Positions 5,148 to 25,971 of a DNA stretch of 64,000 nucleotides are shown one piece after another. Source of the stretch: Spirochaetia bacterium (GTDB taxonomy: Bacteria > Spirochaetota > Spirochaetia > SZUA-6 > Bin103). The position numbers and the translations under genes are program-made. The notes below the pieces were generated by a model, which searched no databases, had not been told where the DNA came from, and worked only from the letters and a program-made list of their open reading frames with translations. How positions within the stretch are numbered: the stretch's first letter is position 1; every line of letters begins with the position of its first letter. The stretch lies in assembly GCA_965203055.1 (NCBI GenBank), contig OZ241863.1:73313-137312 (forward strand), given 5' to 3'.

Positions 5148-5936
<789 letters not shown>

Positions 5937-11197: not shown

Positions 11198-12334
11198 TTA
11201 CCTCCGCGGTACGCCCAGGCGGGCGTAGCCCAACTGGTCCAGGATGCGGTACACGCTGGCGGCGATCAGATCCACCTGCAGGTCGCGGAGCTGATCGAGC
11301 AGCGGGCCGAAGAACACGTTGGCGTCGGCGCGCCCGGCGGCGTCGGGGTAGCGCGGCTCGCCGGCTTCGGTGAAGCCGATGGGGTAGCCGCGTTGCGGGT
11401 CGCGGGCGGCGTGCAGCGCCGCGGCTTCCTGCAGCAGCCGCCGGCCGATCTCCTGCGGGATGTAGCTGAAGGCGTTCATCGCCACCACGCCCAGCTCGCC
11501 CAGGCGCCGCTGCTCGGCCGGCGCCAGCTTGCGCACCGAGCTGAAGCCGTGCACCACCAGGCGCTGCCCCACGCCGCGCGCGGCCAGCTCCTCCAGCACC
11601 GGCCACTGCACGCCCACCTGGCGGTTGGTGACCGACTCGGTGCCGATGTTGGGCACCACCAGCTCGAAGCCGGTGCGCGCCAGGTACTCCTCGATCTGGC
11701 CGGGATCGGAGCTGGAGCTGGCGCCGGCGGCCAGCCCCTGGCCGCCGGCGGCCACCTCCTCCAGACAGCCTTCCATCACCTTCTTGCGGCCCGAGGCTTC
11801 GACGAAGCGGCGATACTCGATGGAGTTGGCGACGTTGGCGGCGAACGGCGAGTGGGTATCGTCGAACATCACGCTGGAGAACAGGTCGAGGAACTCCGGG
11901 TCGCGCAGCAACTCGTTCTGCGAGCGCACCCCGCCGGGCAGCGTGTGATGGCCGTGATCGTAGTGGTGGATCACGTGGACGGCGCCGTAATCGGAGTCGC
12001 CGGCGCGGGTGAGGGTGGCCAGGAAGCCGGTTGCCAGCCGCGCGTTGCGGTGCAGACGGCGGCGGTAGGCCGCCGGGTCGCCGCCGGCCGCCGGCAGCGC
12101 GTGGCCGGCATGCAGGTAGCGCGGCAGCATCTGCAGGACGTAATGGCCGACGGTGCTGAAGATGCCCAGCGGCAGCTCGGCGACGGCATGGTCGCGGGCG
12201 AAGCGCGCGGCCCCTTCCACGATGCCGAGCAGGTGGTGCTGGTCGCTGTAGCCGATCCGCGCCATGGTGAGCCGCGCCTCGCCGCAACGCCGGTAGAGGG
12301 CGGCGGTCGGCTCATAGTCGAGGATCAGCGGCAT
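11198..12334 (-). CDS. Class II aldolase family protein (tagatose/fructose-bisphosphate aldolase GatZ/KbaZ-like)
   Basis: 378 aa with weak similarity to the GatZ/KbaZ-type fold (…VPNIGTES…, LVVHGFSS). The assignment is tentative. Confidence 0.35.
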   Translation of the reverse strand: MPLILDYEPTAALYRRCGEARLTMARIGYSDQHHLLGIVEGAARFARDHAVAELPLGIFSTVGHYVLQMLPRYLHAGHALPAAGGDPAAYRRRLHRNARLATGFLATLTRAGDSDYGAVHVIHHYDHGHHTLPGGVRSQNELLRDPEFLDLFSSVMFDDTHSPFAANVANSIEYRRFVEASGRKKVMEGCLEEVAAGGQGLAAGASSSSDPGQIEEYLARTGFELVVPNIGTESVTNRQVGVQWPVLEELAARGVGQRLVVHGFSSVRKLAPAEQRRLGELGVVAMNAFSYIPQEIGRRLLQEAAALHAARDPQRGYPIGFTEAGEPRYPDAAGRADANVFFGPLLDQLRDLQVDLIAASVYRILDQLGYARLGVPRR

Positions 12335-12340
12335 GGCGGG

Positions 12341-12877
12341 TCAGGCCGCCGCGGGCAGCAGCTTGCGCAGGTAGCCGGCCTGGCCGGCGTGCCACGCGAC
12401 GTCGAGCAGGAAGTGGTCGAGAAACCACCACCCGGAACACTCCCGGTCGGACCAATTGAAATAGCGCTGCGCCGACCACTCGGCGTAGTGGTCGGTGAGG
12501 AACCGGCGCAGCGTCTGCCAGGCGCGGTCCAGGTAGGCGGCGTGGTCGGCGCCGGTCGGACCGGGCCCGGCCGCGTCACGGTCGAAGTCGAAGCTGAGCA
12601 CGCCCCAGCGCGCGGGGCGGCCGGCGGCGGTGCGAAACCCCGCCGCCGGCACCGGGAACCCGGACTGGTTCAGGTTGGCCGGGACGCGCGCCCCGGAGAG
12701 CTGGCCGTAGCAGAACCAGAACTCATCGGCGCAGTGGCGCACCAGCCAGCCGATGCCGTTGCTGATGCCCGGAGGGGTCCACTGCAGTTGCGCGGCGTCC
12801 AGATCGGCCGCAAACCTGTTCAGCCGCTTCCGGTACGACTCCGCTTCCTGCAGGTACCGGGTGACACGCTCATCCAT
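12341..12877 (-). CDS. DinB/DinB_2-like metal-dependent hydrolase family protein
   Basis: Start at MDERV. Four-helix-bundle DinB-like pattern with conserved His residues (LVRHCADEF, DHF). Confidence 0.45.
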   Translation of the reverse strand: MDERVTRYLQEAESYRKRLNRFAADLDAAQLQWTPPGISNGIGWLVRHCADEFWFCYGQLSGARVPANLNQSGFPVPAAGFRTAAGRPARWGVLSFDFDRDAAGPGPTGADHAAYLDRAWQTLRRFLTDHYAEWSAQRYFNWSDRECSGWWFLDHFLLDVAWHAGQAGYLRKLLPAAA

Positions 12878-13038
12878 GGCGCCACAGTAGCGCGCCCCGG
12901 CGGCCGGCGTCACCCCGTAGCGCGGCGCCGTGCGCCGCCGGCCGCCCGCCTCCCGCCGCCGGCGGCATAACCTTGCTTTGTTGCGTCCGTGACCGCGGCG
13001 CCGGCCTGTGGCATGCTGGGCGGCGAAACAGGCAAACC

Positions 13039-13977
13039 ATGCAACGCTTTCTGATCACCGGCGCCGGCGGCAACCTGGCGCGCCACCTCGTGGCCGAGCT
13101 GCGCGCCCTGGGCAAGGAAACGCTCGGCATCGACCTGACGCCGCCGCCGCCGGCGCAGCGCGCGGGCGCGTGGCGGCAGGCCGACGTCACCGACCGCTCC
13201 GGCATGGCGCGGCTGCTGGCGGAGTTTCGCCCGCAGTGCATCCTGCACATGGCATCGCTGCTGTCGATCTCCTCGGCGGCCGATCCGCGGCGCGCCTGGC
13301 AGGTCAACGCCGGTGCCGCCGTCGAACTGCTGGAGCTCGCCGCGGAGCACGGGGTGCAGCGCTTCTTCTTTCCCAGCACCTCGGCAACCTACGGCGGGCG
13401 GCTGCCCGACCCGCTGCCGGAGGACCACCCCCAGTGGCCGGACAACATCTACGGCGCCACCAAGGTGGCGGTGGAGCGCGTCGGCGCCTGCTTCGCCCTG
13501 AGCCGCGGCCTGGACTTCCGCTCGGTGCGCCTGCCGATCGTGGTATCGCCGTACGCGCCGCCGGCCGCGGTGAGCGCCTACGCCTCCCACCTCTTCACCG
13601 CCGCGGCGCGCGGCGAATCGTTCACCGTTCCGGTGGCGCCCGAGGTGGCGGTGGCGGCGATCTACGTCCGCGACGTGACCCGCGGCATTCTGCGCCTTGT
13701 GGCCGCGGCCGAGGAACGGCTGACGCGGCGCGTCTACAACCTGCACGGGTTTGCCGCCAGCGCCGGGGCCTTGGCGCAGGCCGCGGCGCGCCGGGCGCCG
13801 GGGTTCGCGTATCGCTTCGCGCCGGAGGAACTGGCCACCCGCATCCTCGGCGGGCAGCCATCCGTCTACGTTGACGCCAGCGCCCGCCGCGACTGGGGCT
13901 GGGAACCGCAGTTCGACCTCGCCGCCACCGCCGACGACATGCTCGCCTCCCTCAGCGCCGGCGGCAACGAACTCTGA
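13039..13977 (+). CDS. NAD-dependent epimerase/dehydratase (SDR family)
   Basis: MQRFLITGAGGNLARHLV Rossmann motif (GxxGxxG) and a YGATK catalytic motif (YxxxK). Confidence 0.8.
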   Translation: MQRFLITGAGGNLARHLVAELRALGKETLGIDLTPPPPAQRAGAWRQADVTDRSGMARLLAEFRPQCILHMASLLSISSAADPRRAWQVNAGAAVELLELAAEHGVQRFFFPSTSATYGGRLPDPLPEDHPQWPDNIYGATKVAVERVGACFALSRGLDFRSVRLPIVVSPYAPPAAVSAYASHLFTAAARGESFTVPVAPEVAVAAIYVRDVTRGILRLVAAAEERLTRRVYNLHGFAASAGALAQAAARRAPGFAYRFAPEELATRILGGQPSVYVDASARRDWGWEPQFDLAATADDMLASLSAGGNEL

Positions 13978-13983
13978 CCTTCT

Positions 13984-14982
13984 TCAACTTGACTCGCTGC
14001 CCGGCGCTGCCGGCGCTTCGCGCAGCCCCGGCACGCCTGCCGCGGTCGCGGCGCGCCGCACCGCGTTCCGTATCGCGCCGCCGACGCACTCCACCGCCAG
14101 CCCCGCCACCAGCTCGAACGGCGCCGCGCGGACCCCGGCCGCCAGCGCGTAGGCGGTGTCTCCGTCGTGCGTGGTGTGCGCCGGCAGCACCGCGCGGGCA
14201 ATGCCGTCATGGGCGCGCTGCGCCAGGCGCCCCGCCTCGGGCTTGCTCATGACGGCGTCGGTGAGCACCGCTGCCAGCGTAGTGTTGGTGCCGGAGCCGG
14301 CGAACTGCGCCGCGCCCGGCAGCCAGCGCTCCGGGACGCGGCGCGCCAGCCAGCCGCCGGCCGCAGCGCGCGCGCCGGCCAGCACCTCGCCGTGCTCATC
14401 CAGCACGTCGCCGACCGCGTTCACCACCGCCAGCGCCGCCACCACGGTGCCGCCGGCGCAGCGCTCGGCGTAGCCGACGCCGCCCTTCATCTTCGCCTCA
14501 GGCCCGCCCCACTTGCCGACGCTGGCGCCCGCGCCCGCTCCGGCGTTGCCCTGAGCGGCCGCGGGGAGCGGCAGCGGCCGCGCCGCCAGGCAGGCGGCGT
14601 AGCCCAGCTCCGCGTCCGGGTACGCGCGGCCCGCGCTCAGCGACAGATCGTAGATCACGCTGGCGGCTACCAATGGAATCGGCTTGACCGGCGTGGGATA
14701 ACCGGCCCCGCGCTCCGCCAGGTAGCGCATCACGCCATCGGCGGCGGCCAGTCCGAAGGCGCTGCCGCCGGTAAGCAGCAGGGCGTCCAGCCGCGCGATC
14801 GGCTTGTCCGCGGCGAGCAGCGCGGTTTCGCGCGAGCCGGGCGCCGGACCGCGCGCGTCCACCCCGGCAACGGTCCCTTCGGGACAGAGGATCACGGTGC
14901 AGCCGGTAAGGTGCCGGGAATGTACGGCGTGGCCGACCCGGAAGCCGGCGCGCGCCCTCTCCGTTGACCTTGAGTCTGTCAC
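13984..14982 (-). CDS. P1 family peptidase (DmpA/L-aminopeptidase, S58)
   Basis: 332 aa. Core GCTVIL…GV…G…E motifs typical of DmpA/ArgJ-fold aminopeptidases. Confidence 0.65.
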   Translation of the reverse strand: MTDSRSTERARAGFRVGHAVHSRHLTGCTVILCPEGTVAGVDARGPAPGSRETALLAADKPIARLDALLLTGGSAFGLAAADGVMRYLAERGAGYPTPVKPIPLVAASVIYDLSLSAGRAYPDAELGYAACLAARPLPLPAAAQGNAGAGAGASVGKWGGPEAKMKGGVGYAERCAGGTVVAALAVVNAVGDVLDEHGEVLAGARAAAGGWLARRVPERWLPGAAQFAGSGTNTTLAAVLTDAVMSKPEAGRLAQRAHDGIARAVLPAHTTHDGDTAYALAAGVRAAPFELVAGLAVECVGGAIRNAVRRAATAAGVPGLREAPAAPGSESS

Positions 14983-15000
14983 GCCGTCAACCGCCGCGGA

Positions 15001-16749
15001 CTACTCCACGGCGTCGCAGAACACCAGTTCCCAGCCGTGGAACACCAAGGTCAGGCCGGTGAAGCGCACGCCGGGATACTGCCGCGCCAGCCGCTGGTCC
15101 GCCAGATAGCGCCGGAGCTGCGCCGCTGCCTCCGCGGCCGCCGCCGCCACGCCGGCCGCGGCCGCCGACTCGCCGCGCTTGAGGTACTTGAGCTCGATCA
15201 GGTAGCCGTAGCGGAGGTGCGGAAAGGCGGCTACCAGCGGCTCCAGCGCGATGTCCGCGTGCCCCTTGCCCAGCTCCGCCTCCGAGCGGAACTCGTAGAA
15301 GTCGGTCACGCTCAGGTAGGCTGCCAGAAATCCCTGGATCACCTTCTCCCCGGCGATGTAGTCCCGAATCCCCGTCTGCCGCGCAATCGCCTCGCTCAGA
15401 AACTCGAACACCGGCCGCCACTCTCCCTCGTTCGCCATCCGCATCAACAACTGCTCGAAGCGAAACAGGTTCACTGAAAAGACCTTCACGTCGCGGTAGC
15501 CGTCGCGCAGGAAGCCGTACATCAGCCGCTTTACGGTCTGGTTGGGGATCGCCAGCCGAGGCAGGCCGCCAGGCGCACCGCGGATGCTCAACAAGCCGAA
15601 GAAGTGCAGCAGCGAGAGGAAGTTTTCCGGTTCGGCAAGCCGTTCCAGCGGGAAGCCGGGCTGGATGCGGGCGGCTGCCTGCTCCTCGCCAATGACGTCC
15701 CGCAGCAGATCGAAGTTGCCGTTCAACTGCCGGCCGACCACCAGCAGGTGGCGCAGCTTGCCGTAGTCGATGCGCACGTTGGTGTCGATCAGGTACTTGG
15801 GTACCCGGCGGTTGGGGATGGAGTACTTGAGATAATAGAGCACCATGTCGGAGTTGTAGAGGTCGGTCGATGCCTCTTCGGAGAAGCGGTAGCCATTGTA
15901 CCACTCGCCCATGATGCCCAGCGCGGTGTCGGCGTCCTGGTTGAAGACGCCCAGGTCGCGGTACGTCTCGACCAGGCGCCGCACCTCCGCCGCGGTGAAG
16001 CCGACCATCTCGTTGAAGTCCGGTTCCAGGCTGATGTTGGCGCCGATGTTGAAGCCGCTGGTGACGTCGTCCATGGTGACCGGCGACACGCCGGTGATGA
16101 ACAGGCGCTCCAGGCCTCCCCCGATGCGGTCGGCGCCGCCCTTGAGGGCGGCGAAGAAGTTGCGGTAGAAGCCGCCGCCGTGGGTGAAGGAATGGTACGC
16201 CTCGGCGCCGTGCCAGGCCAGCACGGTGTTGGCGAAGTTGTCGTACTCGTCGATCAGCACGTACAGCGGGATGTCGTGGTCGCCCGCGTACCGGAACAGC
16301 GCGGAAAGCCTGGTGGCGATGGACGGCCGGGCGAGGATGTCGCGTACCGCCTCTGCGGGAAACAGGTCAGGGTGCCTCCGCAGCGTCCCCTGGAGTTCGA
16401 CGTCGCAGTAACTTTCGAACTCCCGCTCCAAGGTTTCGAGCTTGTCGTTGACCATAGAGAAGTTGAAGCGCAGGGTGACGTAGCGGCTGCGTTCCTCGGT
16501 CGGGCTGCGCCCGATGTCGGTGCCGGCGTACGTGGCGTCGAAGCGGTCGGCCCAGAAGCGGTCGTAGTAGCTCTCCAGCAGCGCCACCCACAGTGACTTG
16601 CCGAAGCGCCGCGGGCGAATCAGGAAGGCGTAGCGCTCCTGTTCCAGGCGGCGCAGGAAGCGGGTCTTGTCGACGTACAGCCACCGGTTCAGGCGGATGC
16701 GGCTGAATGACGCCTCACCGTAGGGAATGCGCGGATAAGCAGGTACCAT
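15001..16749 (-). CDS. AAA-ATPase (DUF1703-type) with C-terminal PD-(D/E)xK nuclease-like domain
   Basis: 582 aa. Walker A RRFGKSL. C-terminal …GHADIALEP…YLIELKY… has the PD-(D/E)xK pattern. GC is lower than the flanks. Confidence 0.6.
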   Translation of the reverse strand: MVPAYPRIPYGEASFSRIRLNRWLYVDKTRFLRRLEQERYAFLIRPRRFGKSLWVALLESYYDRFWADRFDATYAGTDIGRSPTEERSRYVTLRFNFSMVNDKLETLEREFESYCDVELQGTLRRHPDLFPAEAVRDILARPSIATRLSALFRYAGDHDIPLYVLIDEYDNFANTVLAWHGAEAYHSFTHGGGFYRNFFAALKGGADRIGGGLERLFITGVSPVTMDDVTSGFNIGANISLEPDFNEMVGFTAAEVRRLVETYRDLGVFNQDADTALGIMGEWYNGYRFSEEASTDLYNSDMVLYYLKYSIPNRRVPKYLIDTNVRIDYGKLRHLLVVGRQLNGNFDLLRDVIGEEQAAARIQPGFPLERLAEPENFLSLLHFFGLLSIRGAPGGLPRLAIPNQTVKRLMYGFLRDGYRDVKVFSVNLFRFEQLLMRMANEGEWRPVFEFLSEAIARQTGIRDYIAGEKVIQGFLAAYLSVTDFYEFRSEAELGKGHADIALEPLVAAFPHLRYGYLIELKYLKRGESAAAAGVAAAAAEAAAQLRRYLADQRLARQYPGVRFTGLTLVFHGWELVFCDAVE

Positions 16750-16757
16750 GACTGCGG

Positions 16758-18377
16758 TCAGACCGACGGGGCGACGATCCGGGCGATGGCGGCGCGCATC
16801 CAGCCGGTAGCGGCCAGATCGGCCGGCCGCAGATCGAAGCCGGTCAAGTAGCTGGGCCGATGGGACTTCATGCTCAGAAACTGGTAGAACCGCTCGAAGT
16901 CATCGGCAGCGGTCGCCACCGTAATCTCCTCGATAGCCCGCGCCTTTAGCTCTTTGGAGAACGTCTTGATGATCTCGTAGCTGTTGCGATTCTTCTCCAG
17001 GCTGACCAGCAGGCGGTCCCGCACCGTGCGCATGGTCATGGCGATCGCGCTCAGATAGCGCGACCGGTCGAAACCGGCCGGAGCGAGCTCCGCTACGTTG
17101 TCAGGATGATAGAGATAGTTCTCGATACAATAGTGGCGCAGCACCAGCAAACGCGGACGGTTGCGGCGTATCTCGTCGAGCTCCTCGGTGCCCAGAAAGT
17201 CACGGTCGATCAGGCCGTGAAACCCGTCCGTTCCTGCCGTCTGGATAGAGATCGAATTCTTGTCCTGTGCGGAAATGAACAATGTGTCCTGCAGGCCGAT
17301 CGCATTGTAGAGCAAGGCGTCCTTATTCTCGCACAGGATCAGACGCTTGTTTGGAAACACCTTGAGCGCCGAGCTGCGCGGTACGGCGATATCGAATACG
17401 CGCTCGGTCTTCGGGGCAGGCCGCAGCACCTGCGGCCGATCGAAGTCCAAATCGTCGAAGTCGACGATCGCGGTGTCGCTGCTGGAGCTTCCGTAGTCGA
17501 TGAACCCGAGCGAGTGGCTGGCCGTCCACAGTTGCGAGTGTTCGGGAATCCAGCGCTCCACGATCTCCTGCAGCAGAGCGTACTGCAGCCGGGTATGCAG
17601 GTGCACGTCCAGCTCGTCGATGAAGTAGATGGCATTGGCGAAGTGCTCGCGTCGCACGAACAGGTTGAGCAGGATATTGAAGACCTCCTTCTCGCCGCTG
17701 CTGAGCAGGTCGTAGTGGACCTCGGAATGCCCTTTGCTGAATCGAATGTCCGGCGGCTTTCGATCCAGCGCCGGAATCATACCGGTCAGGCGCAGAGTGG
17801 TGGCGTCACCATTGCCGAATACCCTGGCCATCGCGTCGTTGATCGGCTCGAGGAAGCGCGCCTTCATCTGCTCGGAGTCGAATCGCTCTCCCCACACCTC
17901 GCGCAGGATGCGCGCGGTGACGTGCGAGATGTCGGCCTCGAAGCGAGTGTCCCACTCTATCGACCGCTGCGGGCGGTCGTCGTCCGCCGGCAGGTCGACG
18001 GTGCGGCCATTTCGGTGCCGGAGCTCCGGGACCGTTCGGAGCGAACTTCTGCCGTAGAACGCGTCCTTGAGATTCAGGTTGGGAGGTGTAGGGGCGACCG
18101 ATCCGTTCGTCCTGCGGAGGGATGCTCCACCACCGAACGAGCAGGAGACCGCTACCTCCTCGTCCCAGTCCTTCTTGAAGTAGCTCAAGTAATCGTTACG
18201 ACCGACTCCCTTGGAGGGACCGGAAAGAAACTCGAACGCATCGAATACGGATGACTTTCCGCTCCCGTTCGCGCCGATCAGCAGCACCAGCTTTGGCGCC
18301 GAGGCGCACGCTGACAGATCAATCTCAAGATCGGTAAACCGCTTGAAGTTCGTGAGATGGAGGTTGCTGATGTTCAT
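16758..18377 (-). CDS. Fused ABC-type ATPase (AAA_15/21) plus DUF4435/Toprim-like domain protein (PARIS AriA-AriB-like single polypeptide; OLD-family-like)
   Basis: 539 aa. Walker A GANGSGKSS, ABC signature LSSGEKE, Walker B IYFIDELDVHLH. C-terminal LILCENKDA…GLIDRDF resembles the Toprim/DUF4435 acidic motifs. About 60% GC versus about 70% in the flanks. Confidence 0.55.
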   Translation of the reverse strand: MNISNLHLTNFKRFTDLEIDLSACASAPKLVLLIGANGSGKSSVFDAFEFLSGPSKGVGRNDYLSYFKKDWDEEVAVSCSFGGGASLRRTNGSVAPTPPNLNLKDAFYGRSSLRTVPELRHRNGRTVDLPADDDRPQRSIEWDTRFEADISHVTARILREVWGERFDSEQMKARFLEPINDAMARVFGNGDATTLRLTGMIPALDRKPPDIRFSKGHSEVHYDLLSSGEKEVFNILLNLFVRREHFANAIYFIDELDVHLHTRLQYALLQEIVERWIPEHSQLWTASHSLGFIDYGSSSSDTAIVDFDDLDFDRPQVLRPAPKTERVFDIAVPRSSALKVFPNKRLILCENKDALLYNAIGLQDTLFISAQDKNSISIQTAGTDGFHGLIDRDFLGTEELDEIRRNRPRLLVLRHYCIENYLYHPDNVAELAPAGFDRSRYLSAIAMTMRTVRDRLLVSLEKNRNSYEIIKTFSKELKARAIEEITVATAADDFERFYQFLSMKSHRPSYLTGFDLRPADLAATGWMRAAIARIVAPSV

Positions 18378-18557
18378 CTTTTACGCCGCGCATCATACGC
18401 GAACGATCGTGATTCGGCAAACAGGCGCAGGATCGGCACGGATCGGCACTGTGGGAAGCAACTGCCGGGGCCGACGGCGACTCCGCCTTGCGCCGGTGTG
18501 GCGCAAGCGGCGGGTGACGACCGAACGCCTCGACCGGGCACGTGATACGATGTCGGG

Positions 18558-19289
18558 GTGATGATCGATGCCATCTTCTTCGATTGGGACGGTACGCTGA
18601 TGGACGACGACGCGAGTTGGCGTCGATGCGTGTCGGCCGCGGCCGGCGCGGTCGCGCACCGCTGCCACGTCGATCCCGGCGAGCTGACCGCCGCGTACCA
18701 TGCGGCCGCGCAGCGCCTCTGGGAGGAAGTCAAGAACGTCAGCGGGCCGCCGTGGGGGAACACGGACGACCGCTGCCTCGTACGGCGGACGTGGAACGCG
18801 GCCCTGCGCCGGCCGCACGCCTCCGGCGAGGCCGAGGCCGCGGCTGCGCAGGCGGTCGAAATCTACCTCCGGCTCAGATCGAAGGAGACGCCGATCTACG
18901 ATGACGTCGTCGATTGCCTGAGCGCCCTGCGCGGCCGCTATCGGCTTGGCGTGATTACCAACGGCTCGAACGCGACCCATCTTCCGAAGGTCGAAGCCTC
19001 CGGCCTGGGCCGCTACTTCGGTTCCGTGACCACCACCGACGTCGGTTCCGGCAAGCCGTTCCGGCCGATCTTCGCTCATGCGCTGGCCTCCCTGGATGCC
19101 GTACCGGCGCGCGCGCTCTACGTCGGCGACTGGCCGTTCGCGGACGTCGGCGGCGCCAATGGCGCCGGGATGTTTTCCGTGTGGATCAACCGGACCGGCG
19201 CCGCGCTCCGTCCCGACGACCCGGTCCCGGACGCGCAGATCACCTCCCTGCGCGACCTGCCGCGCGTACTCGCCCGCCTGCAGGCATAG
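18558..19289 (+). CDS. HAD-superfamily hydrolase
   Basis: Motif I FFDWDGTL, motif III GKP, motif IV VGDW…D. Confidence 0.75.
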   Translation: MMIDAIFFDWDGTLMDDDASWRRCVSAAAGAVAHRCHVDPGELTAAYHAAAQRLWEEVKNVSGPPWGNTDDRCLVRRTWNAALRRPHASGEAEAAAAQAVEIYLRLRSKETPIYDDVVDCLSALRGRYRLGVITNGSNATHLPKVEASGLGRYFGSVTTTDVGSGKPFRPIFAHALASLDAVPARALYVGDWPFADVGGANGAGMFSVWINRTGAALRPDDPVPDAQITSLRDLPRVLARLQA

Positions 19290-19311
19290 CCGCCGCGGCG
19301 GCATTCTTCGG

Positions 19312-20673
19312 TCAGTCCACCGCCGGCAGCTCCGCCAACGCCTCGGCGATGCGCTCCTGCGGATACTCGTAGTTGACGAGCTGGCCGTCGAGGAACGAGC
19401 GGTACGCCTGCATGTCGAAGTGCCCGTGGCCGCACAGGTTGAAGGCGATCACCCGCGACTCGCCGGCCTCCTTGCAGCGCAGCGCTTCCTCGATGGCGAC
19501 GTGAACGGCGTGCGCGGGCTCCGGCGCGGGCACGATCCCCTCGGTGCGCGCGAACAGCCGGGCCGCCTCGAACACCGGCACCTGCGGCACGGCGCGCGCT
19601 TCGATCACGCCCAGGTCGTGCAGATGGCAGACCAGCGGCGCCATCCCGTGGTAGCGCAGGCCGCCGGCGTGAATCGGGGCCGGCACGAAGGAATGGCCCA
19701 GCGTGTACATCTTGAGCAGCGGCGTGGTGGCCGCCGCGTCGCCGAAGTCGTAGCGGTACTGTCCGCCGGTCAGGCTGGGCGCCGCCTGCGGCTCGACCGC
19801 CACGAAGCGCGTGGCGCGCGCGCCGCTCAGATTGGCGGGCACGAACGGGAAGATGAACCCGCCGAACGAGGAGCCGCCGCCGGTGCAGCCGACCATGACG
19901 TCGGGGTAGACGCCGGCGCGCTCGAACTGCGCCTGCGCCTCCAGGCCGATCACGGTCTGATGCAACAGCACGTGATTGAGCACCGATCCCAGGCAGTACT
20001 TCTTGCTGCCGCCGCTGGCGGCCGCCGCTTCCACCGCCTCCGAGATGGCGATGCCGAGCGATCCCGGCGAATCGGGCTGCCGCTCCAGCACCTGCCGGCC
20101 GGCGTTGGTGGCGGGCGACGGACTGGCGGTGACGCCGGCGCCGTAGGCCTCCATCATCGAACGGCGGTACGGCTTGCCGTCGTAGGAGACGCGCACCATG
20201 TACACCTCGCAGTCGACGCCCAGGAACGCGCCGGCCATCGCCAGCGCGCTGCCCCACTGTCCGGCGCCGGTCTCGGTGGTGAGCTGCGTCACCCCTTCCT
20301 CGCGGTTGTAGAACGCCTGCGCCACCGCCGTGTTGGGCTTGTGCGAGCCGACCGGCGAGACGCCCTCGTACTTGTAGTAGAGGCGCGCGGGGGTATCGAG
20401 CTCCCGTTCCAGGCGCCGCGCCCGGAACAGCGGCGTCGGGCGCCACAGCCGGTAGATCTCGCGGATCGGCTCCGGAATCGGTATCTCCCGCTCCCGGCTG
20501 ACCTCCTGCTCGATCAGCGCCAGTGCGAACAGCGGCGCCAGGTCATCGGGACCGATCGGGTCCATCCGGCCCGGATGGATCACCGGCGGCAACGGTTCCG
20601 GCAGGTCGGCCTGGATGTTGTACCAGGAGGCGGGAATCTCGGACTGCGGCAGATCGAAGCGAATCGTCTCCAT
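19312..20673 (-). CDS. trpB2: Tryptophan synthase beta-like protein, TrpB2 type
   Basis: 453 aa. PLP lysine context GSHKPN, GGGS loop, and the TrpB2-characteristic long N-terminus. Confidence 0.8.
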
Positions 20674-20689
20674 CGTTTCTCCTCATCGT

Positions 20690-20730
20690 ATTATCATAGC
20701 GCTGCTGCGGGCCATGATACCGCAAGCGAC
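20690..20730 (-). promoter_or_regulatory. Putative promoter plus RBS for trpB2
   Basis: On the minus strand: TATGATAAT (-10-like), then GAGGAG, then ATG within about 20 nt. Confidence 0.25.
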
Positions 20731-20860
20731 CGGAAAGGGAGCGACAGGCACACGTGACGCGCAAGAAGCCGGCCAAGCGCCCGGACAACTACCGGCACCC
20801 GGAAGCCGGGGCGCTGCTGCGCCCGGACATCGGCACCCAGCCGCGCGCGGTATCTGACCC

Positions 20861-21796
20861 GTGATCCGGTCGGTTCGCATCCGCGGCTTCAAGCGGTTCG
20901 GCGAGGTCGAGTTCCGGCTGCCGGGGCACGTCGTGCTGGCCGGGCCCAACGACACCGGCAAGACCACGCTGCTGCAGGCGGTCGCGGCATGGGCGCTCGC
21001 CCTGCGGCGCTGGCGGGAGCTCAACGACTTCAATCGCCGCAACGGCTACCGGCGGGCGCCGCTTGCCCGCCAGGCGTTCGCGGCGGTGCCGGTGCGCAAC
21101 TTCGACCTGCTGTGGACCGACTGCCGCTACCGCGGGCAGATCGAGATCGAGCTGCGTCACGACGCCGGCTGGGCGGTGACGATGGAGTTGATCCCCGACA
21201 GCAGCGAACAGATCTACGTGCGACCGGCGAGTTCCTCGTCCGGCGACCTGCGCCGGATCGATCCGCAGGTGGTGTTCGTGCCGCCGATGACCGGCCTCGG
21301 CACCGACGAACCGGTGCTGCAAGCCCCCAAGATCGAACAGCTTCTCGGCATCGGGCGGCCGGGTGAGGTGCTCCGCAACCTGCTGGCCGAGGCGAACCGC
21401 GACGCGGCGGCATGGGACGCGCTGCAGGCAACGATCGGCAAGCTGTTCGGCTATCGGCTGCTGCCGCCCGACGCCAGCGGCGCGCACATCCGCGCGGAAT
21501 ACACCGTGACCGATCAGGGGCCGCCGTTCGACGTGGCCAGCGCCGGCAGCGGATTCCAACAGGTCCTGATGCTGCTGGCGTTTCTCACCACCCGTCGCCG
21601 CGCCGTCCTGCTGCTGGACGAACCCGACGCCCATCTGCACGTGATCCTGCAAGACGCGATCTACCATGAGTTGCGCAGCGCCGCCGCCCGCCGCGGCTCG
21701 CAGCTCATCGTGGCCACCCATTCGGAAGTGGTCATCAACGCCGTCGAGCCGCGCGAACTCATTCGAGTCGACGCCCCTGGCACTAAGTATCACTAA
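20861..21796 (+). CDS. AAA_21/ABC-like ATPase (defence-associated family), possibly C-terminally truncated
   Basis: Walker A GPNDTGKTT, Walker B LLLDEPDAHLH, H-loop VATHS. The gene has native-like GC, but its last about 8 codons fall in the low-GC DNA that begins near 21780. Confidence 0.55.
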   Translation: MIRSVRIRGFKRFGEVEFRLPGHVVLAGPNDTGKTTLLQAVAAWALALRRWRELNDFNRRNGYRRAPLARQAFAAVPVRNFDLLWTDCRYRGQIEIELRHDAGWAVTMELIPDSSEQIYVRPASSSSGDLRRIDPQVVFVPPMTGLGTDEPVLQAPKIEQLLGIGRPGEVLRNLLAEANRDAAAWDALQATIGKLFGYRLLPPDASGAHIRAEYTVTDQGPPFDVASAGSGFQQVLMLLAFLTTRRRAVLLLDEPDAHLHVILQDAIYHELRSAAARRGSQLIVATHSEVVINAVEPRELIRVDAPGTKYH

Positions 21797-21847
21797 GATT
21801 GTCGGGTATGTAAGTTTGGTCACCCATTATGGGATACATAGAAGCCG

Positions 21848-22732
21848 ATGGACTCACCGAAGACACCGATTGACTTGTTCGGGCGCCCGGCGTACGTCCG
21901 GCCAAACGGGTCGCTGCTCAAGTGGATCGGCAACAAGTATAAGGTCGCAGAGGAGATTACCTCCTATTTCCCGGCCGAGATGCGGGCCTTCTACGACGTG
22001 TTTGTCGGCGGCGGTTCAATCCTGGCCACGGTAGCGCCGGCTCGCGGCGTGGGGTCGGACTCATTCGCGCCCTTGATCGAAATATGGAGCATGATTCGGT
22101 CCGATCCCGCTGTGGTCAAAGGGTGGTACGAGCAGCGCTGGCGGTATGCCATGTCGGGGGACCGCCGGGAGCGGTATGAAGAGATCAAGGCTTCATACAA
22201 CGCCCGGTCGAATGGAGCCGACTTCCTGTATCTCACCCGCGCTTGCTACGGCGGCGTCATCAGGTTCAGGAAGCATGACGGTTATATGTCCACGCCGGTG
22301 GGCATTCATCGGCCCATCGAGCCCCGCAACTTCGCCAAGCGGGTGGACGAATGGCACGTGAGAGTACAAGGCACCGAGTTTATTCGTGCCGATTATGCCG
22401 ACGTAATGGAACGCTGTGAGGCCGGAGATATGGTCTATTGCGACCCTCCGTATACCCACAGTCAAGCTATTTTGTATGGCGCCCAGGACTTCAGCATCGT
22501 TCAGTTGTTCGAGTCGATCGAACGCTGCAAGACGCGAGGTGTTCGCGTCGCCCTGAGCATCGATGGTACCAAGAAGTCCGGGAGTGAGAACTGCCATGTT
22601 CCCATACCGGAAGGGTTGTTCGAGCGGCAGATCCTGGTCAAGACCGGGAGATCGATGCTGCGGCGCTTTCAGATGGATGGCCAGACCCTGGAGTCGGAGG
22701 TCGTGGCGGATCGCCTATTGCTGACGTACTAA
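21848..22732 (+). CDS. Dam-class (D12, alpha-group) DNA N6-adenine methyltransferase
   Basis: KWIGNKY N-terminal motif, FVGGGS (motif I), VYCDPPY (motif IV). About 57% GC. Confidence 0.8.
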   Translation: MDSPKTPIDLFGRPAYVRPNGSLLKWIGNKYKVAEEITSYFPAEMRAFYDVFVGGGSILATVAPARGVGSDSFAPLIEIWSMIRSDPAVVKGWYEQRWRYAMSGDRRERYEEIKASYNARSNGADFLYLTRACYGGVIRFRKHDGYMSTPVGIHRPIEPRNFAKRVDEWHVRVQGTEFIRADYADVMERCEAGDMVYCDPPYTHSQAILYGAQDFSIVQLFESIERCKTRGVRVALSIDGTKKSGSENCHVPIPEGLFERQILVKTGRSMLRRFQMDGQTLESEVVADRLLLTY

Positions 22733-22750
22733 GCTCCTGATGGCGATCAG

Positions 22751-25102
22751 TCAGATGGAGGAAGCTTCAAGGGCATCCCAAAATCGCCGTATCTGTGGCG
22801 GCACGTCGCTTGCTTTGTTTGCTCCTGACATGATCTTTTCCGGCGGAAACTGTCTGCGCAAGAACTCCTTGGCTGGCCCTGAAGCTGATTTTCGATCGAT
22901 CGTCACTATACCGTGCTCAAGGAGAAGCCTGCGTAACCTGCGCCAGCGCCAGGAATCATGAAACAGACGACCCCCATCATCAACGTCGTAGATCGGATTC
23001 GCTCGCTCGTATGCGCGCATCAGCCATTCGAGCAATTCCATTGATCGATCCGACACGTTCCGCCTATCTTGATCTGAATCAGTATCTACCGATGTTCCAC
23101 AATCGGACAGCACACGCATGATCTTATCGGGAATACGTATTGTCTCCTTTCCCTTATCGATCAGACTCTGAACTCCAGCGACATCACGTGGAACCCGGAG
23201 TCCATTCAGTTCCAGCCGGGTGCTCCCGACCTCCACCATTGGCTCCTCGAGCAAGATGTTGTGTGCGTAACACTCTACAAACTTCGTGGCTCCCAAATTC
23301 GTCCGTCGTACTGTAACGCCGTCCAGCGTACAATTTCGCAAAGTGACGCCGGAAAGATCACCGCCGGGAAAGATTACGTTACTTATCTTGAGCCCTGCTA
23401 TGTCAGCCTCGTTGTTCGACCCGAATGCCTTCAACAAGGCCAAGACGATCAGTCCGGCATTTTCCCGAACCTGAGACGCTCGTCGCCATTCGTCACGTCC
23501 CGCCATCGCCAGACGGTTCAGCATTACTTGAAGATCATCAAGAGTTGACAAGGTGTCGTTTGTCATCACCTCTGCTGCAAATCGTTCAGCGACCAACTCG
23601 GGCAACGCAGCGCGACTCAGGATCGCACGCAGGTCTGAATTCGAACCGTACTGCTCGGCAATAACACGGGCAAGGAAGTAGAAGAAATAGACCTCATGCT
23701 CGAACCCGATCGTCTCATGCTTCTCACTGTGGGTGAGAAATGCAAGTGTCGGCATCCGTTCAATGATGATCTGTCTCTCAGACTCGTCAATTTCATCGTG
23801 AAGAAAAAACTCTGCGACTTCCCTTACGGATACACCATCGAGCTCGCGGGTCTCCTGGTTCCACATCTCTTCGGCAAGTTCTCGTACGATCATTTCAAGC
23901 TGATCTTCGGACAACAGCGGTCGCTGTTGGCGATCGAGGATCTTCTCCGCCTGTTCCCGCTTCAGGAAGCTATGGATCAAGGTGTCAAGCAAGTTGCCAT
24001 CTTCAGAAAATTCGCTACCCGTTAGTACCAAATCGACAGTCTTGGCAAAGAACAGCGGCTTATCCATGAGATGACTATCTTGTTGGAACGCCGCGCGGAC
24101 TTTTTTTCGTAACTCATTCTTCCTTTCCGTCGGCAGCGAGTATTGACGCGCGATCTCATTCAGGTAGTCTGACCGGTGGGCGTCGTCCCACGGCGCTATC
24201 TCCACGGGTATGTGCGACCATCGCTGTTTCCCCGTCGCAGCGGCTCGGTCGGCGCGCCGGAGGAACTCTTCCTCGTAATAAGTTGATCTAGCTGAGGTAA
24301 TTATTCTACCGTAGCCATCCAGTTGTTCCAGAAAAGTCGCCAGAGTACTGAAGGCGTCATCATACCCACTGACCCCTAGAAGCTCGTCGAATCCGTCTAT
24401 CACGGGCACCAACAGTCCTACGCGGACCAGGGTTGCAACGGAATGGTAAGTCAGGTTGACCCTCAGATCCTGCAGTTCCGTAGCAAGCGCTTCGTGCAGC
24501 CGCGCCAGGGCGCGGCCTTGCGCATTCACATATAGCAGCAACTTTCCCGTACTGCCGCGCAGGTACCGGTCGGCCTGTTGCCAGACCAGCTCCTGTAGCA
24601 CCCGCGTCTTGCCGGCGCCGGCGCCGCCGGTGGCCATGATGACCTCGGTCACATCAGGCTCGTCATCTTCCATGAGTTCAGTGAGCAACTCCGTGGCGGG
24701 TTGGGGTCCTTTCAGCACCCCGCCCCCATCCGGGCAGCGAGCTCCGGTAGGAACGAATATTTTGTCTTGTCTGGACCGATAGATCATGCGAGCGACATGC
24801 TTCAGATCTGCCATCCGTGTATCCGCAAGAAAAACGGTATACGGCAGGGTCGTACCGTTGGCGCTTGCGGTAACCTCGTGGTCTCGCGAAACCGTAAAAT
24901 TAGCTTCCCGAGGTTCGCCGCGCATTTGCCACTCGGCCTGGAGTCTCCTCCCCGTTGCAGAGATCACGTGGATACCACCCGGGTCTGCAAATGACGTCAG
25001 GTCGCTTTCGATGCGCTCGAGGTCTGCGTCGTATGTCTCGCGCACTTGATCAGCTCCCCAGTTGATGGACGGTAAGCCCCTCGCTGACCAGCGCAGCGTC
25101 AT
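22751..25102 (-). CDS. NACHT/STAND-class NTPase with unknown N-terminal domain and C-terminal pentapeptide repeats
   Basis: 783 aa. Walker A MATGGAGAGKT, Walker B VPVIDGFDEL (NACHT-style hhhhDGxDE), a long helical region, and a C-terminal run of A(D/N)LxG-type pentapeptide repeats (…NVIFPGGDLSGVTLRNCTLDGVTVRRTNLGATKFVEC…). About 52% GC. Confidence 0.7.
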   Translation of the reverse strand: MTLRWSARGLPSINWGADQVRETYDADLERIESDLTSFADPGGIHVISATGRRLQAEWQMRGEPREANFTVSRDHEVTASANGTTLPYTVFLADTRMADLKHVARMIYRSRQDKIFVPTGARCPDGGGVLKGPQPATELLTELMEDDEPDVTEVIMATGGAGAGKTRVLQELVWQQADRYLRGSTGKLLLYVNAQGRALARLHEALATELQDLRVNLTYHSVATLVRVGLLVPVIDGFDELLGVSGYDDAFSTLATFLEQLDGYGRIITSARSTYYEEEFLRRADRAAATGKQRWSHIPVEIAPWDDAHRSDYLNEIARQYSLPTERKNELRKKVRAAFQQDSHLMDKPLFFAKTVDLVLTGSEFSEDGNLLDTLIHSFLKREQAEKILDRQQRPLLSEDQLEMIVRELAEEMWNQETRELDGVSVREVAEFFLHDEIDESERQIIIERMPTLAFLTHSEKHETIGFEHEVYFFYFLARVIAEQYGSNSDLRAILSRAALPELVAERFAAEVMTNDTLSTLDDLQVMLNRLAMAGRDEWRRASQVRENAGLIVLALLKAFGSNNEADIAGLKISNVIFPGGDLSGVTLRNCTLDGVTVRRTNLGATKFVECYAHNILLEEPMVEVGSTRLELNGLRVPRDVAGVQSLIDKGKETIRIPDKIMRVLSDCGTSVDTDSDQDRRNVSDRSMELLEWLMRAYERANPIYDVDDGGRLFHDSWRWRRLRRLLLEHGIVTIDRKSASGPAKEFLRRQFPPEKIMSGANKASDVPPQIRRFWDALEASSI

Positions 25103-25649
25103 TCATCGCTGAACCGACCTCTCTGGTACGCATCCATACGACCGCATCGGGGTGGCCTGCGTGCGCTGAGAGCGCGCCCGGGAGAAGATCGTCATCGTCT
25201 GTCACAATGCCAACACAGGTCCGCGCCTGCGCCGCGGCATATAGCGCATCGCAGGCCAGCATGCCGTCTACCATTTTCTGTACGTAGCGGCGGTCGGTGC
25301 CGCTCCCGGTGGGAGGCCGCATCCGGCGCCGCACCGTGCCTCGCGGGTGAAACATCGGGAATTGGATCATCGAGGTGGCAAGCGCCGGACGGACGATCAG
25401 GCCATTGCGCCGGCCGCGCAGCACCGGCAGCAACTCATGCAGCCATGACGCATGGCGGCTCGGCCATCCCTGCTCAGTGATCCATCCTCCGTACAGCCGG
25501 AGATCGAGCTCGCGCGCGTCCGGGAACAGGGTTGCGAACGCGCGAGACACCTGCTCCACGATGGTCAGAGTAACGAGTTCCAGATCAGCTTTCGAGTTCT
25601 GGTCACGGCGGCGAAAATTGTACCAGTCGACAAGAGCCAGCCCTTGCAT
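25050..25649 (-). CDS. NYN/YacP-like (PIN-fold) nuclease domain protein
   Basis: 199 aa. N-terminal LALVDWYNF (the VDGYN-type motif of NYN/YacP) and a distal acidic cluster VGIVTDDDDLLPG. Overlaps the start of the STAND gene by 53 nt, giving the operon order NYN then STAND. Confidence 0.45.
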   Translation of the reverse strand: MQGLALVDWYNFRRRDQNSKADLELVTLTIVEQVSRAFATLFPDARELDLRLYGGWITEQGWPSRHASWLHELLPVLRGRRNGLIVRPALATSMIQFPMFHPRGTVRRRMRPPTGSGTDRRYVQKMVDGMLACDALYAAAQARTCVGIVTDDDDLLPGALSAHAGHPDAVVWMRTREVGSAMNDAALVSEGLTVHQLGS

Positions 25650-25793
25650 GAGTTACTACCCAACCCAATATACGACCTGGAGCGGGGGGTCAGCTTTGGG
25701 AAGCGGCCGGCCCGCCCGGTAGTGGTACGCGACGGGCCGGCTGCCGGTAATGGTGACGGAGGCGCTCCGGTTGCCGTTAGCCCACCCGCCTGA

Positions 25794-25877
25794 TGCCCGG
25801 AAGAGGACTCGAACCTCCACAGCCGTACGGCCACCAGACCCTGAACCTGGCGTGTCTACCAATTTCACCATCCGGGC
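25794..25877 (-). tRNA. tRNA-Leu (anticodon CAG)
   Basis: The reverse complement gives GCCCGGATGGTGAAATTGGTAGACACGCCAGGTTCAGGGTCTGGTGGCCGTACGGCTGTGGAGGTTCGAGTCCTCTTCCGGGCA: a long-arm class II tRNA with anticodon loop CTCAGGG. Its 3' end faces the low-GC islet. Confidence 0.85.
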
Positions 25878-25971
25878 AGGATGACGGTAACAACCTACCC
25901 CTGCCCGGCACTCCTGTCAAGACCTTGAGACGAGACGAGACGAGATCTGCGCCGCGCGGCGGGAGCGCCGG

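Follow-up and report, generated by a model that had tools for sequence, protein, structure and literature searches.

A low-GC islet beside tRNA-Leu(CAG) in a Spirochaetia bacterium: a probable variable defence hot spot and a composite of two cassettes

Islands delivered by tyrosine integrases, such as P4-like islands and integrative conjugative elements (ICEs), are linked to tRNA genes. What, then, is to be made of a stretch of low GC (guanine plus cytosine) content that abuts the 3' end of a tRNA gene, as such islands do, but contains no integrase? The question is raised by a locus in a Spirochaetia bacterium (GenBank assembly GCA_965203055.1, contig OZ241863.1, positions 73,313 to 137,312 of the forward strand), in which genes encoding a Dam-family DNA methyltransferase, a STAND NTPase and a 199-amino acid (aa) NYN/PIN-like protein lie between a 3'-truncated ATPase gene and tRNA-Leu(CAG). 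An earlier note, made from the sequence alone, had pointed to these genes as an islet of about 4 kilobases (kb), either decayed or exchanged as cargo at a tRNA hot spot. All coordinates refer to the whole stretch of 64,000 nucleotides (nt) that was analysed, hereafter the window. The reading that we favour, with a probability of roughly 0.7, is that this is a long-lived variable defence hot spot beside tRNA-Leu(CAG), kept up by recombination and deletion, and that the islet is a composite of two cassettes. These would be two independent AT-richer cassettes placed tail to tail, namely the operon of the 199-aa and STAND genes (hereafter the pair) and what is left of a Type II restriction-modification (R-M) system. 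The locus has a wider meaning, that is, low GC, a tRNA and a missing integrase are not to be taken for a single decayed island; here, base-level comparison with relatives separates a pair of cassettes, two deletions at microhomologies and a single tract of recombination inside a gene.

Composition and edges of the low-GC stretch

The abrupt fall in GC that had been noticed near 21780 is upheld by 80-nt windows, in which it is sharp, from 0.64 at 21700-21779 to 0.45 at 21780-21859. GC is 0.573 over 21797-25791 and 0.702 in the rest of the window (15001-25878 left out), and it is 0.57 versus ~0.70 when the scar described below is included (21763-25791). GC does stay low up to the tRNA, although the tRNA-proximal end (the 199-aa gene plus a spacer, ~800 nt) is only mildly low (GC ~0.64-0.65). 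Could the dip simply be normal genome variation, with no discrete feature at all? Bins of moderately low GC do occur elsewhere in the window, with values of 0.61-0.65 between 15 and 19 kb and of 0.64-0.66 in several spots. However, across 1-kb bins of the whole window (mean GC 0.689, standard deviation (SD) 0.047), 23001-24000 is the lowest of all 64 kb, with a GC of 0.521 (about -3.6 SD), GC at third codon positions (GC3) is 0.60 in the STAND gene versus 0.91, and presence/absence polymorphism among relatives coincides with the compositional boundaries. The drop thus lies beyond normal variance, and we give this explanation virtually no credence. As a separate matter of composition, the tetranucleotide TTAA is absent from the window (1-64000; 0 observed versus ~5 expected) and CTAG occurs nine times versus 66 expected.

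The right edge is set by tRNA-Leu(CAG), which ARAGORN places at 25792-25878 on the minus strand (Rfam RF00005 at 25794-25877, 48.6 bits). Its discriminator base is 25794 and its 3' end is directed toward the islet, which begins at most 4 nt away, on the 3' side and co-linear with the tRNA. Compositionally foreign DNA therefore does abut the tRNA 3' end, as had been claimed, with GC3 values of 0.60 (STAND), 0.72 (199-aa gene) and 0.75 (Dam) versus 0.89-0.94 in core genes. The 199-aa gene is separated from the tRNA 3' end by a 142-nt spacer (25650-25791, minus strand, co-oriented with the tRNA), which presumably provides an operon promoter or read-through from the tRNA. Promoter and terminator scans found no consensus promoter at the spacer and nothing above shuffled expectation, and the spacer is poorly kept in one close relative, L082 (identity 0.69 with 41 gaps over 25773..25579, a span that also takes in ~70 nt at the start of the 199-aa gene). 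The claim that no integrase or transposase gene is present stands as well: no recombinase, integrase or transposase domain was found by Pfam in the eight genes of 14965-25791, and the intergenic gaps inside 21797-25791 (51, 18, 4 and 142 nt) are too short to hide an integrase between the islet genes.

A restriction-modification remnant at the left edge

What lies at 21780 becomes clear by comparison with relatives. These were found by a scan of GTDB species genomes for the 555-aa protein encoded beside the tRNA, which gave high-GC Spirochaetia metagenome-assembled genomes (MAGs) with 83-92% aa identity, while closer strains are metagenome contigs reached via look-ups of STAND homologs. Most comparators (designated L001, L002 and so on) are MAGs or short metagenome contigs, and synteny was read by tblastn and blastn. 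Exact-sequence look-ups of the 555-aa protein and of a 100%-identical Dam (P0241) returned no contig on record. Judged by database neighbours, the lineage appears to be sponge-associated.

Two genes meet at the left edge. The first (20861-21796, plus strand) encodes an ATP-binding cassette (ABC)-type ATPase that is truncated at its 3' end, has a host-like GC of 0.69 and belongs to AAA_21 (Pfam 9.6e-22), with AriA, NsnB and MAD3 as its likenesses. Its codons 1-301 match 550-aa genes of L082 and L170, while its last 10 codons and stop come from the scar; homology breaks at 21762/21763 and the gene ends at codon 311, where L082 and L170 encode ~250 more residues. The second (21848-22732, plus strand) encodes a Dam-family (D12 class) N6-adenine DNA methyltransferase (PF02086 2e-24; PADLOC MTase_II PDLC03290 2e-69, full length) with a DPPY motif, a TIGR00571 score of 114.0 bits versus a cut-off of 114.85 and a ratio of non-synonymous to synonymous divergence (dN/dS) of ~0.1.

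An intact version of this region is found in L170, which has, in order, the 550-aa ATPase gene (GC 0.69), an 85-nt spacer, an opposite-strand restriction endonuclease (REase) gene (GC 0.52), a control region of 302 nt that ends in the palindrome ATATCCCAT-T-ATGGGATAT, and Dam (GC 0.57). The window matches it at 20840-21762 (95.8% identity) and 21823-22745 (92.4%), and the 1973 nt between these blocks in L170 (1071-3043) are missing. In local alignment, window 21754-21828 corresponds to the L170 spacer and the last REase codons, from CGAACT on. This hexamer (21754-21759) is also the end of the ATPase homology and marks a first 6-nt microhomology junction, while CCCATT (21823-21828), which is common to the REase 3' end (GGTCACCCATT) and the palindrome, marks a second one. 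What remains of the deleted restriction gene is a scar at 21754-21834 (minus strand) that consists of the REase 3' flank and last ~12 codons (21793-21828). The stop of this stub is the reverse complement of 21793-21795 and overlaps the opposite-strand stop that the ATPase gene has acquired, and the stub is followed by a remnant of a C-box-like palindrome, CCCAT-T-ATGGG, at 21823-21833. What had been taken for an integration junction at 21780 is thus a pair of microhomology deletion scars in an ATPase/REase/Dam array that is intact in L170 and partly so in L082, and the GC step is abrupt because a host-like ATPase gene has been joined to an AT-richer R-M remnant. The word "decayed" in the earlier note was apt in this respect, for the left edge holds an R-M stump and a truncated ATPase.

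That the remnant comes from an R-M system is argued by the company kept by Dam elsewhere. Each of its homologs with 95%, 85% and 72% identity has as its neighbour a gene that is transcribed divergently and encodes a protein of 214-286 aa, which carries DUF7687 and, in L170, L173 and L174, also DUF7690. The DUF7687 protein of L170 is a full-length match to PADLOC REase_II (7e-60), and a full REase_II gene of 280-286 aa adjoins the Dam homologs in L170 and L173-L175. A controller of the HTH_3 family is found beside Dam in L171 and between Dam and the REase-like gene in L175. The REase_II match, the divergent Dam and the controller therefore make up a classic Type II R-M layout. A description of DUF7687 was not found in the literature searched, and avoidance of GATC in the window, which could have been a clue to the specificity of the system, is not seen (observed/expected 1.03).

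The closest strains carry other stages of decay. L081 has the same ATPase truncation as the window but a different second deletion, which has spared more of the REase gene (the stub matches DUF7687 positions 158-187 of 187) but only the last ~37 nt of Dam. L082 has the full ATPase gene and no REase, and its Dam gene has lost 306 nt internally. The history that these comparisons suggest is that an R-M cassette (REase with DUF7690/DUF7687, C-box region and Dam-family methylase) would once have stood beside a full-length PARIS-like ATPase gene, that a deletion at the CCCATT microhomology would have taken out the restriction gene and left an orphan methylase, and that another at CGAACT would have removed the C-terminal domain of the ATPase. 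To judge from its sequence, Dam is an intact orphan, the last of the Type II R-M cassette, and it may have retained DNA methylation but no longer restriction. Dam, STAND and the NYN-like gene were also considered as one system, which was rejected: in L081, L082 and L084, all of which have an intact pair, Dam is missing or broken, and it travels with the REase (L170 and L173-L175).

The left edge is also where the view of a single insertion meets its first difficulties. On that view, which was that of the earlier note and which we consider unlikely, one ~4-kb islet made of the methyltransferase, STAND and NYN genes was inserted by an integrase at the tRNA-Leu 3' end, clipped the ATPase gene, duplicated 7 bp and later lost its integrase. 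However, the left edge is accounted for base by base by deletions in the ATPase/REase/Dam array. The 7-bp repeat, CACTAAG-TAT-CACTAAG, is real, but it lies at 21781-21787 and 21791-21797 (not at 21786-21802, as first given), is native REase 3' sequence and is statistically ordinary. L170 has CACTGAATATCACTCAG at the REase 3' end and flank, at the place of the repeat in the window, which itself holds 264 7-mer repeats with a gap of at most 10 nt (35 with a gap of exactly 3). The repeat was therefore rejected as a target-site duplication.

As for the ATPase, the best PADLOC matches of the truncated protein are to NsnB (3.4e-23), followed by AriA (1.2e-22) and mad3. A related gene nearby (16758-18377) encodes an intact 539-aa protein of AAA_21/AAA_15 type that matches AriAB, AriA and AbiLi in PADLOC, and the motif RxYxIExYLxHP is common to this protein and to the ~250-aa extra domain of the full-length relatives. 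That domain has no Pfam match and no significant match to DUF4435 or Toprim, and the DUF4435 match of the 539-aa protein is marginal (E 0.18). Assignment of the ATPase to MADS or NsnB was rejected (NF047739, 50.9 bits versus a 420-bit cut-off). Both ATPases look PARIS-like in sequence, and the truncated one is probably non-functional.

Age, mobility and mosaicism of the 199-aa/STAND pair

Is the rest of the islet an insertion, and if so of what age? An empty site, which the earlier note had proposed to look for, is present in three relatives (L001, L039 and L002) that are without the low-GC islet, so that gene content does differ among related genomes. Homology to these three and to L084 breaks at 25790-25793, 2-4 nt past the tRNA 3' end (blastn). 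Downstream of the 555-aa gene and tRNA-Leu, L039 and L002 have a gene for an S58 peptidase, at 230 nt and 20 nt respectively; L001 has a PALP gene 12 nt past the homology break, followed by S58. In L084, the tRNA is followed by the 199-aa gene, STAND, a transposase fragment, a 356-aa open reading frame (ORF), HAD, an AriAB-like gene and S58. In L082 the order is 199-aa gene, STAND, the internally deleted Dam, the full-length ATPase gene and PALP, and in L081 it is 199-aa gene, STAND, 266 nt of debris and the truncated ATPase gene. The extra DNA of the window spans 14965-25789 (10.8 kb) by comparison with L039 and L002, and two blocks by comparison with L001, 20674-25789 (5.1 kb, including the high-GC ATPase gene) and 14965-19308. 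The GC boundary at 21780 is hence not an indel edge, as the indels end at 20673 or 14965, and there is no single 4-kb unit, as the indel is 5.1 kb and takes in the high-GC ATPase gene versus L001, and 10.8 kb versus L039/L002.

The nucleotide identity of the 555-aa core gene to that of the window is 98.3% in L081, 95.9% in L082, 90.9% in L001, 90.3% in L084 and ~87% in L039 and L002, and the core tree groups ((window, L081), L082) in a trichotomy with L001 and L084, followed by (L039, L002). The pair is found at the same tRNA-Leu in L081, L082 and L084, and the trees of STAND and of the 199-aa gene agree in topology with that of the core gene. Residence of the pair at this tRNA therefore predates ~10% core divergence, and a recent arrival of the NYN/STAND DNA does not hold. 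Such an age counts against the single integrase-delivered islet, and so do the differing distributions of the genes: Dam is reduced to a 37-nt remnant in L081 and absent in L084, while the STAND pair is absent in L170, so that Dam and the pair are not one unit.

The pair is also found well beyond this tRNA. A 199-aa homolog lies directly upstream of STAND in L081-L089, and likewise in all full-length metagenome homologs whose identity is 38% or more and in roughly half of the ones near 30%, a count that leaves out three matches starting at STAND residue 165, which have no 199-aa partner. In another Spirochaetia genome (L085 and L086), the copy occupies a different chromosomal site, with nucleotide homology to the window over exactly 25652..22751, that is, the two ORFs. 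In an Acidobacteria MAG (L088/L089:1-14367), the pair (~49% identity) is cargo of an ICE, next to a tyrosine integrase. It occurs in Spirochaetia, Acidobacteria ICEs and soil metagenomes, and tblastn with STAND against plasmid and phage collections gave no match. Wherever there is enough flank (25 loci among L081-L165, in hosts with GC of 0.56 to 0.72), the pair is AT-richer than its flanks (25/25, mean -11.8 GC points), its own GC being steady at 0.55 in all lineages, without amelioration; the low GC goes along with the cassette.

At the site in L085/L086 (5407-8298 in both) the cassette has landed in a second place on the chromosome, ~20 kb away from the tRNA locus. There it comes directly after an oligopeptide-type ABC transporter operon whose orthologs in the window have their end near 5157, and L085 has a gene for a DDE transposase inserted just downstream of it. 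The element in L088/L089 carries, apart from the integrase, TrbC, VirB3, a VirB4-like gene and CagX, with an N6_N4 methylase gene nearby.

A steady low GC and a STAND tree congruent with the core tree could also mean that the block is ancestral to the clade, was deleted in L001, L039 and L002 and owes its low GC to intrinsic constraint, with no insertion at the tRNA ever having taken place; deletions are demonstrably frequent at the locus, and the composition of the pair relative to its flanks, identical in direction at all 25 loci, fits. Nevertheless, the deeper-branching L039 and L002 are without all 10.8 kb (20-230 nt from tRNA to S58) and one of them has an attachment (att) scar instead of remnants of islet genes, the cassette is found at other loci and in an ICE of other genomes, hence it is mobile, and synonymous divergence (dS) above the core value favours imported alleles. 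We consider an ancestral block improbable, to about the same extent as a single integrase-borne islet.

The tRNA itself gives a mixed answer to the question of integration. No second copy of the tRNA-Leu 3' end is present in the window by repeat search, blastn-short or fuzzy search with a 27-mer (at most 5 errors); the direct repeat that had been expected near 21780 is thus found neither there nor anywhere else in the window. The best match, 12 exact nt (CTGATGCCCGGA, corresponding to the tRNA-Leu 3' end plus the first bases downstream) at 12762-12773 in a conserved 190-aa gene, was rejected as a chance event (E 0.47). In L039 (10104-10298), the same fuzzy search (0 matches in shuffled sequence) found the last 27 nt of tRNA-Leu(CAG) repeated with 3 differences 170 nt downstream of the tRNA. 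This att-like repeat indicates at least one past use of tRNA-Leu as an attachment site in the lineage. The repeat pair in L039 encloses ~170 nt of unassigned DNA.

A single integrase-delivered islet therefore has in its favour the position on the tRNA 3' side, the atypical GC, the empty sites in relatives, the L039 copy as the mark of a site once used by an integrase, and the carriage of the pair by an ICE beside a tyrosine integrase in L088 and L089, but the window holds no tRNA-derived repeat beyond a chance 12-mer. That the pair originally came with an integrative element which targeted the tRNA and decayed afterwards is plausible, though unproven, and the L039 scar and ICE carriage point in that direction.

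What has happened since is better recorded. The window and L081 STAND genes have 98.5-99% identity over the first 1640 nt but only ~81.6% over the last 350 nt, a part over which L081 and L082 are 97.2% identical and the window is ~81.5% identical to either. The corresponding tract (21829 to ~23350) has 75-88% identity to L081 over the last ~200 STAND codons, against 98-100% outside the tract; it spans the pentapeptide and C-terminal domains and runs on into the Dam region, where the Dam gene has been replaced. Accordingly divergent are the two parts of STAND, with a dS of 0.54 in the C-terminal domain versus 0.03 in the NACHT part. Over the pair, dS is 2-3.4 times that of the flanking core gene (0.46 versus 0.13 for window-L082, 0.62 versus 0.30 for window-L084). 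The divergent tract bears the mark of homologous recombination with alleles that had diverged, for which no integrase is needed, and it bears out the earlier suggestion of a cargo exchange at a hot spot. In the variable hot spot that we favour, genes would at present be lost through deletion and exchanged for divergent alleles by homologous recombination, via the conserved flanks and inside STAND, free of any integrase.

The proteins of the pair, known systems and neighbouring genes

The STAND protein (22751-25045, minus strand) is a 764-aa NTPase of the NACHT clade. Its start was set at GTG 25045 because most of its homologs, of which there are at least 499, are ~765 aa long; this GTG comes 4 nt past the stop of the 199-aa gene and is closely preceded by GGGGAG, while the mechanical ORF extends to 25102. 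The protein consists of an N-terminal region of ~130 aa with no family match in Pfam, a NACHT module (Pfam 25.3 bits, below the 26.7 cut-off), a pentapeptide beta-helix (~553-636) and a C-terminal alpha/beta domain. Residues G143, G145, K146, T147 and D217-E221 are invariant, homologs show pentapeptide matches (PF13599 or PF00805), and the top Foldseek matches of the AlphaFold2 (AF2) model (predicted local distance difference test (pLDDT) score 83) are NLRC4, NOD2 and NLRP3 (E 3e-13 to 1e-10). Two distant homologs (~30%; L121:536-1945 and L135:5368-6939) have no 199-aa partner and instead a ThiF/E1-like ORF directly upstream, which hints at partner swapping in the wider STAND family.

The 199-aa NYN/PIN-like protein is encoded by the first gene of the two-gene operon (25050-25649, minus strand). 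It has 168 homologs, with a Pfam domain in 0/120 among the matches listed, and invariant D8, N11, D128, D134, D152 and D154. The window protein itself has no Pfam match and no PDB sequence match. Its AF2 model (pLDDT 91.5) matches the NYN domain of MARF1 and the LabA/NYN-like VPA0982 in Foldseek (probability 0.96-0.99, E ~1e-2, TM-score 0.42-0.54), and 4/57 homologs touch Pfam NYN (PF01936), at E 0.033 or weaker. The label "NYN-like" is reasonable but unproven, and by analogy the protein is a candidate nuclease effector. Both genes are under purifying selection (dN/dS 0.11-0.34 for the 199-aa gene, 0.21-0.28 for STAND).

By analogy with better known STAND proteins, (i) STAND would sense a phage-derived cue via its C-terminal beta-helix and domain, which is the recombining part, (ii) it would oligomerise in an NTP-dependent manner and (iii) once oligomerised, it would license its co-translated, nuclease-like 199-aa partner to degrade nucleic acid, probably RNA, thereby aborting infection. 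We tentatively propose, at somewhat less than even odds, that the pair is a distinct, widespread and unnamed two-gene antiphage system, in which a sensor resembling those of the nucleotide-binding leucine-rich repeat (NLR) type acts with a trans-encoded RNase and has its C-terminal part swapped between co-resident symbiont strains through homologous recombination. The NYN-like/NACHT pair would in any case make a reasonable candidate defence system.

Several points weigh against the reading of the locus as a defence hot spot with this history. Any role of the pair in phage defence is proposed by analogy with the bNACHT and Avs systems, neither STAND nor the 199-aa protein has a matching model in PADLOC or NCBIfam, and the NYN assignment is weak (a Foldseek E value of ~1e-2 for a model, and a window protein without Pfam match). 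As to history, (i) the trichotomy of the core tree makes one gain indistinguishable from gain plus loss in L001, (ii) most relatives being metagenome-assembled, there may be chimeric assembly at a variable locus, (iii) the raised dS could come in part from relaxed codon bias in low-GC3 genes and not from imported alleles, and (iv) the order of the two deletions, and whether or not the R-M system arrived with the ATPase, are deduced from three comparators (L081, L082 and L170).

How does the locus compare with what is known? It resembles tRNA-linked islands in its location on the tRNA 3' side, atypical GC, defence cargo and presence/absence in close relatives, as well as in the att-like repeat of L039. 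It differs from them in that the window has no integrase, excisionase or att repeat, the distal edge is a deletion scar, the content is not one element and it is vertically common to lineages ~10% apart in core nucleotides. A second precedent is the integrase-less defence hot spot between core genes, exchanged through its flanks, a concept that comes from Vibrio, E. coli and Pseudomonas pangenomes. Here too there are conserved flanks (the 555-aa gene with the tRNA at one end, and either PALP or S58 at the opposite end), defence cargo that varies gene by gene, sharp identity breaks between otherwise 99%-identical strains and defence-like cargo in nearby intergenic slots, such as the Ssp-like module of L001 and the HNH protein of L002. 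The differences are that one breakpoint falls inside a sensor gene, yielding a mosaic STAND, and that the comparison here is between a few MAGs and contigs instead of a population sample. A defence hot spot of this sort is ordinary in bacteria.

The same holds for its parts, all of which are of known kinds. Sensors of bNACHT proteins are of several types, including pentapeptide repeats, and their effectors are usually N-terminal fusions, operons being rare and poorly conserved (Kibby et al., bioRxiv 10.1101/2022.07.19.500537). The STAND protein resembles bNACHT and Avs STANDs in its central NACHT module (hence the NLRC4, NOD2 and NLRP3 matches), C-terminal repeat and defence-island context, but the candidate effector is a separate 199-aa protein without Pfam family, in a strictly conserved operon with 4-nt spacing. 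This operon of a NACHT/pentapeptide protein with a family-less NYN-like partner is the least-charted component; no description of a NACHT plus NYN operon was found in the literature searched, and the architecture is a variation on bNACHT and Avs themes and not a new principle. The D12 methylase with its DPPY motif is like those of Type II R-M systems that combine a Dam-family methylase with a C-protein/C-box controller and a PD-(D/E)XK REase, and like the orphan methylases that such systems leave when they decay, relatives having the divergent REase with or without the HTH_3 controller; unlike a complete system, the window keeps the methylase alone, and the REase family is known to Pfam only as DUF7690/DUF7687. 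The ABC ATPases (AAA_21/AAA_15; NsnB, AriA, mad3 and AriAB in PADLOC) are like those of PARIS (AriA/AriB) and AriAB, but the window copy is without the ~250-aa domain, which even in full-length relatives has no DUF4435 or Toprim match. The locus thus offers a natural example, in uncultured symbionts, of R-M decay to an orphan Dam, of a PARIS-like ATPase disabled as collateral and of an NLR-like sensor diversified by allele mosaicism.

Beyond the islet, the variable region extends to the S58 peptidase gene at 13984-14982, its far flank. In between lie, according to Pfam and PADLOC, an AAA-ATPase_like+PDDEXK_9 gene (15001-16749, minus strand), the gene of the 539-aa AriAB-like ATPase already mentioned (minus strand, GC3 0.80), a HAD gene (18558-19289, plus strand) and a PALP/TrpB-like gene (19312-20673, minus strand). 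These genes of 14965-20860 come and go independently of each other: all four are missing in L039 and L002, PALP alone is present in L001, and HAD and the AriAB-like gene alone in L084. The AAA-ATPase_like+PDDEXK_9 gene is found only in the window among the relatives compared, and the 539-aa AriAB-like protein is common to the window and L084 (83% aa identity). The two genes of defence type at 15001-18377 form a second, milder low-GC patch (GC 0.63).

Other slots are filled in other relatives. In L001, ARAGORN calls a tRNA-Ser(ACT) at 15405-15482 inside high-GC, coding-looking DNA, which is probably a false positive, and a low-GC insert at 16028-19764 between the S58 and epimerase genes, missing in the window, encodes Aminotran_5, DUF4007 and an ABC-like ATPase and resembles a phosphorothioation module of Ssp/Dnd type. 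In L002, a 2.5-kb insertion (11650-14163) lies 5' of the same tRNA-Leu and includes an ORF of 544 aa that has an HNH motif in its C-terminal part (Pfam E 4.6e-4).

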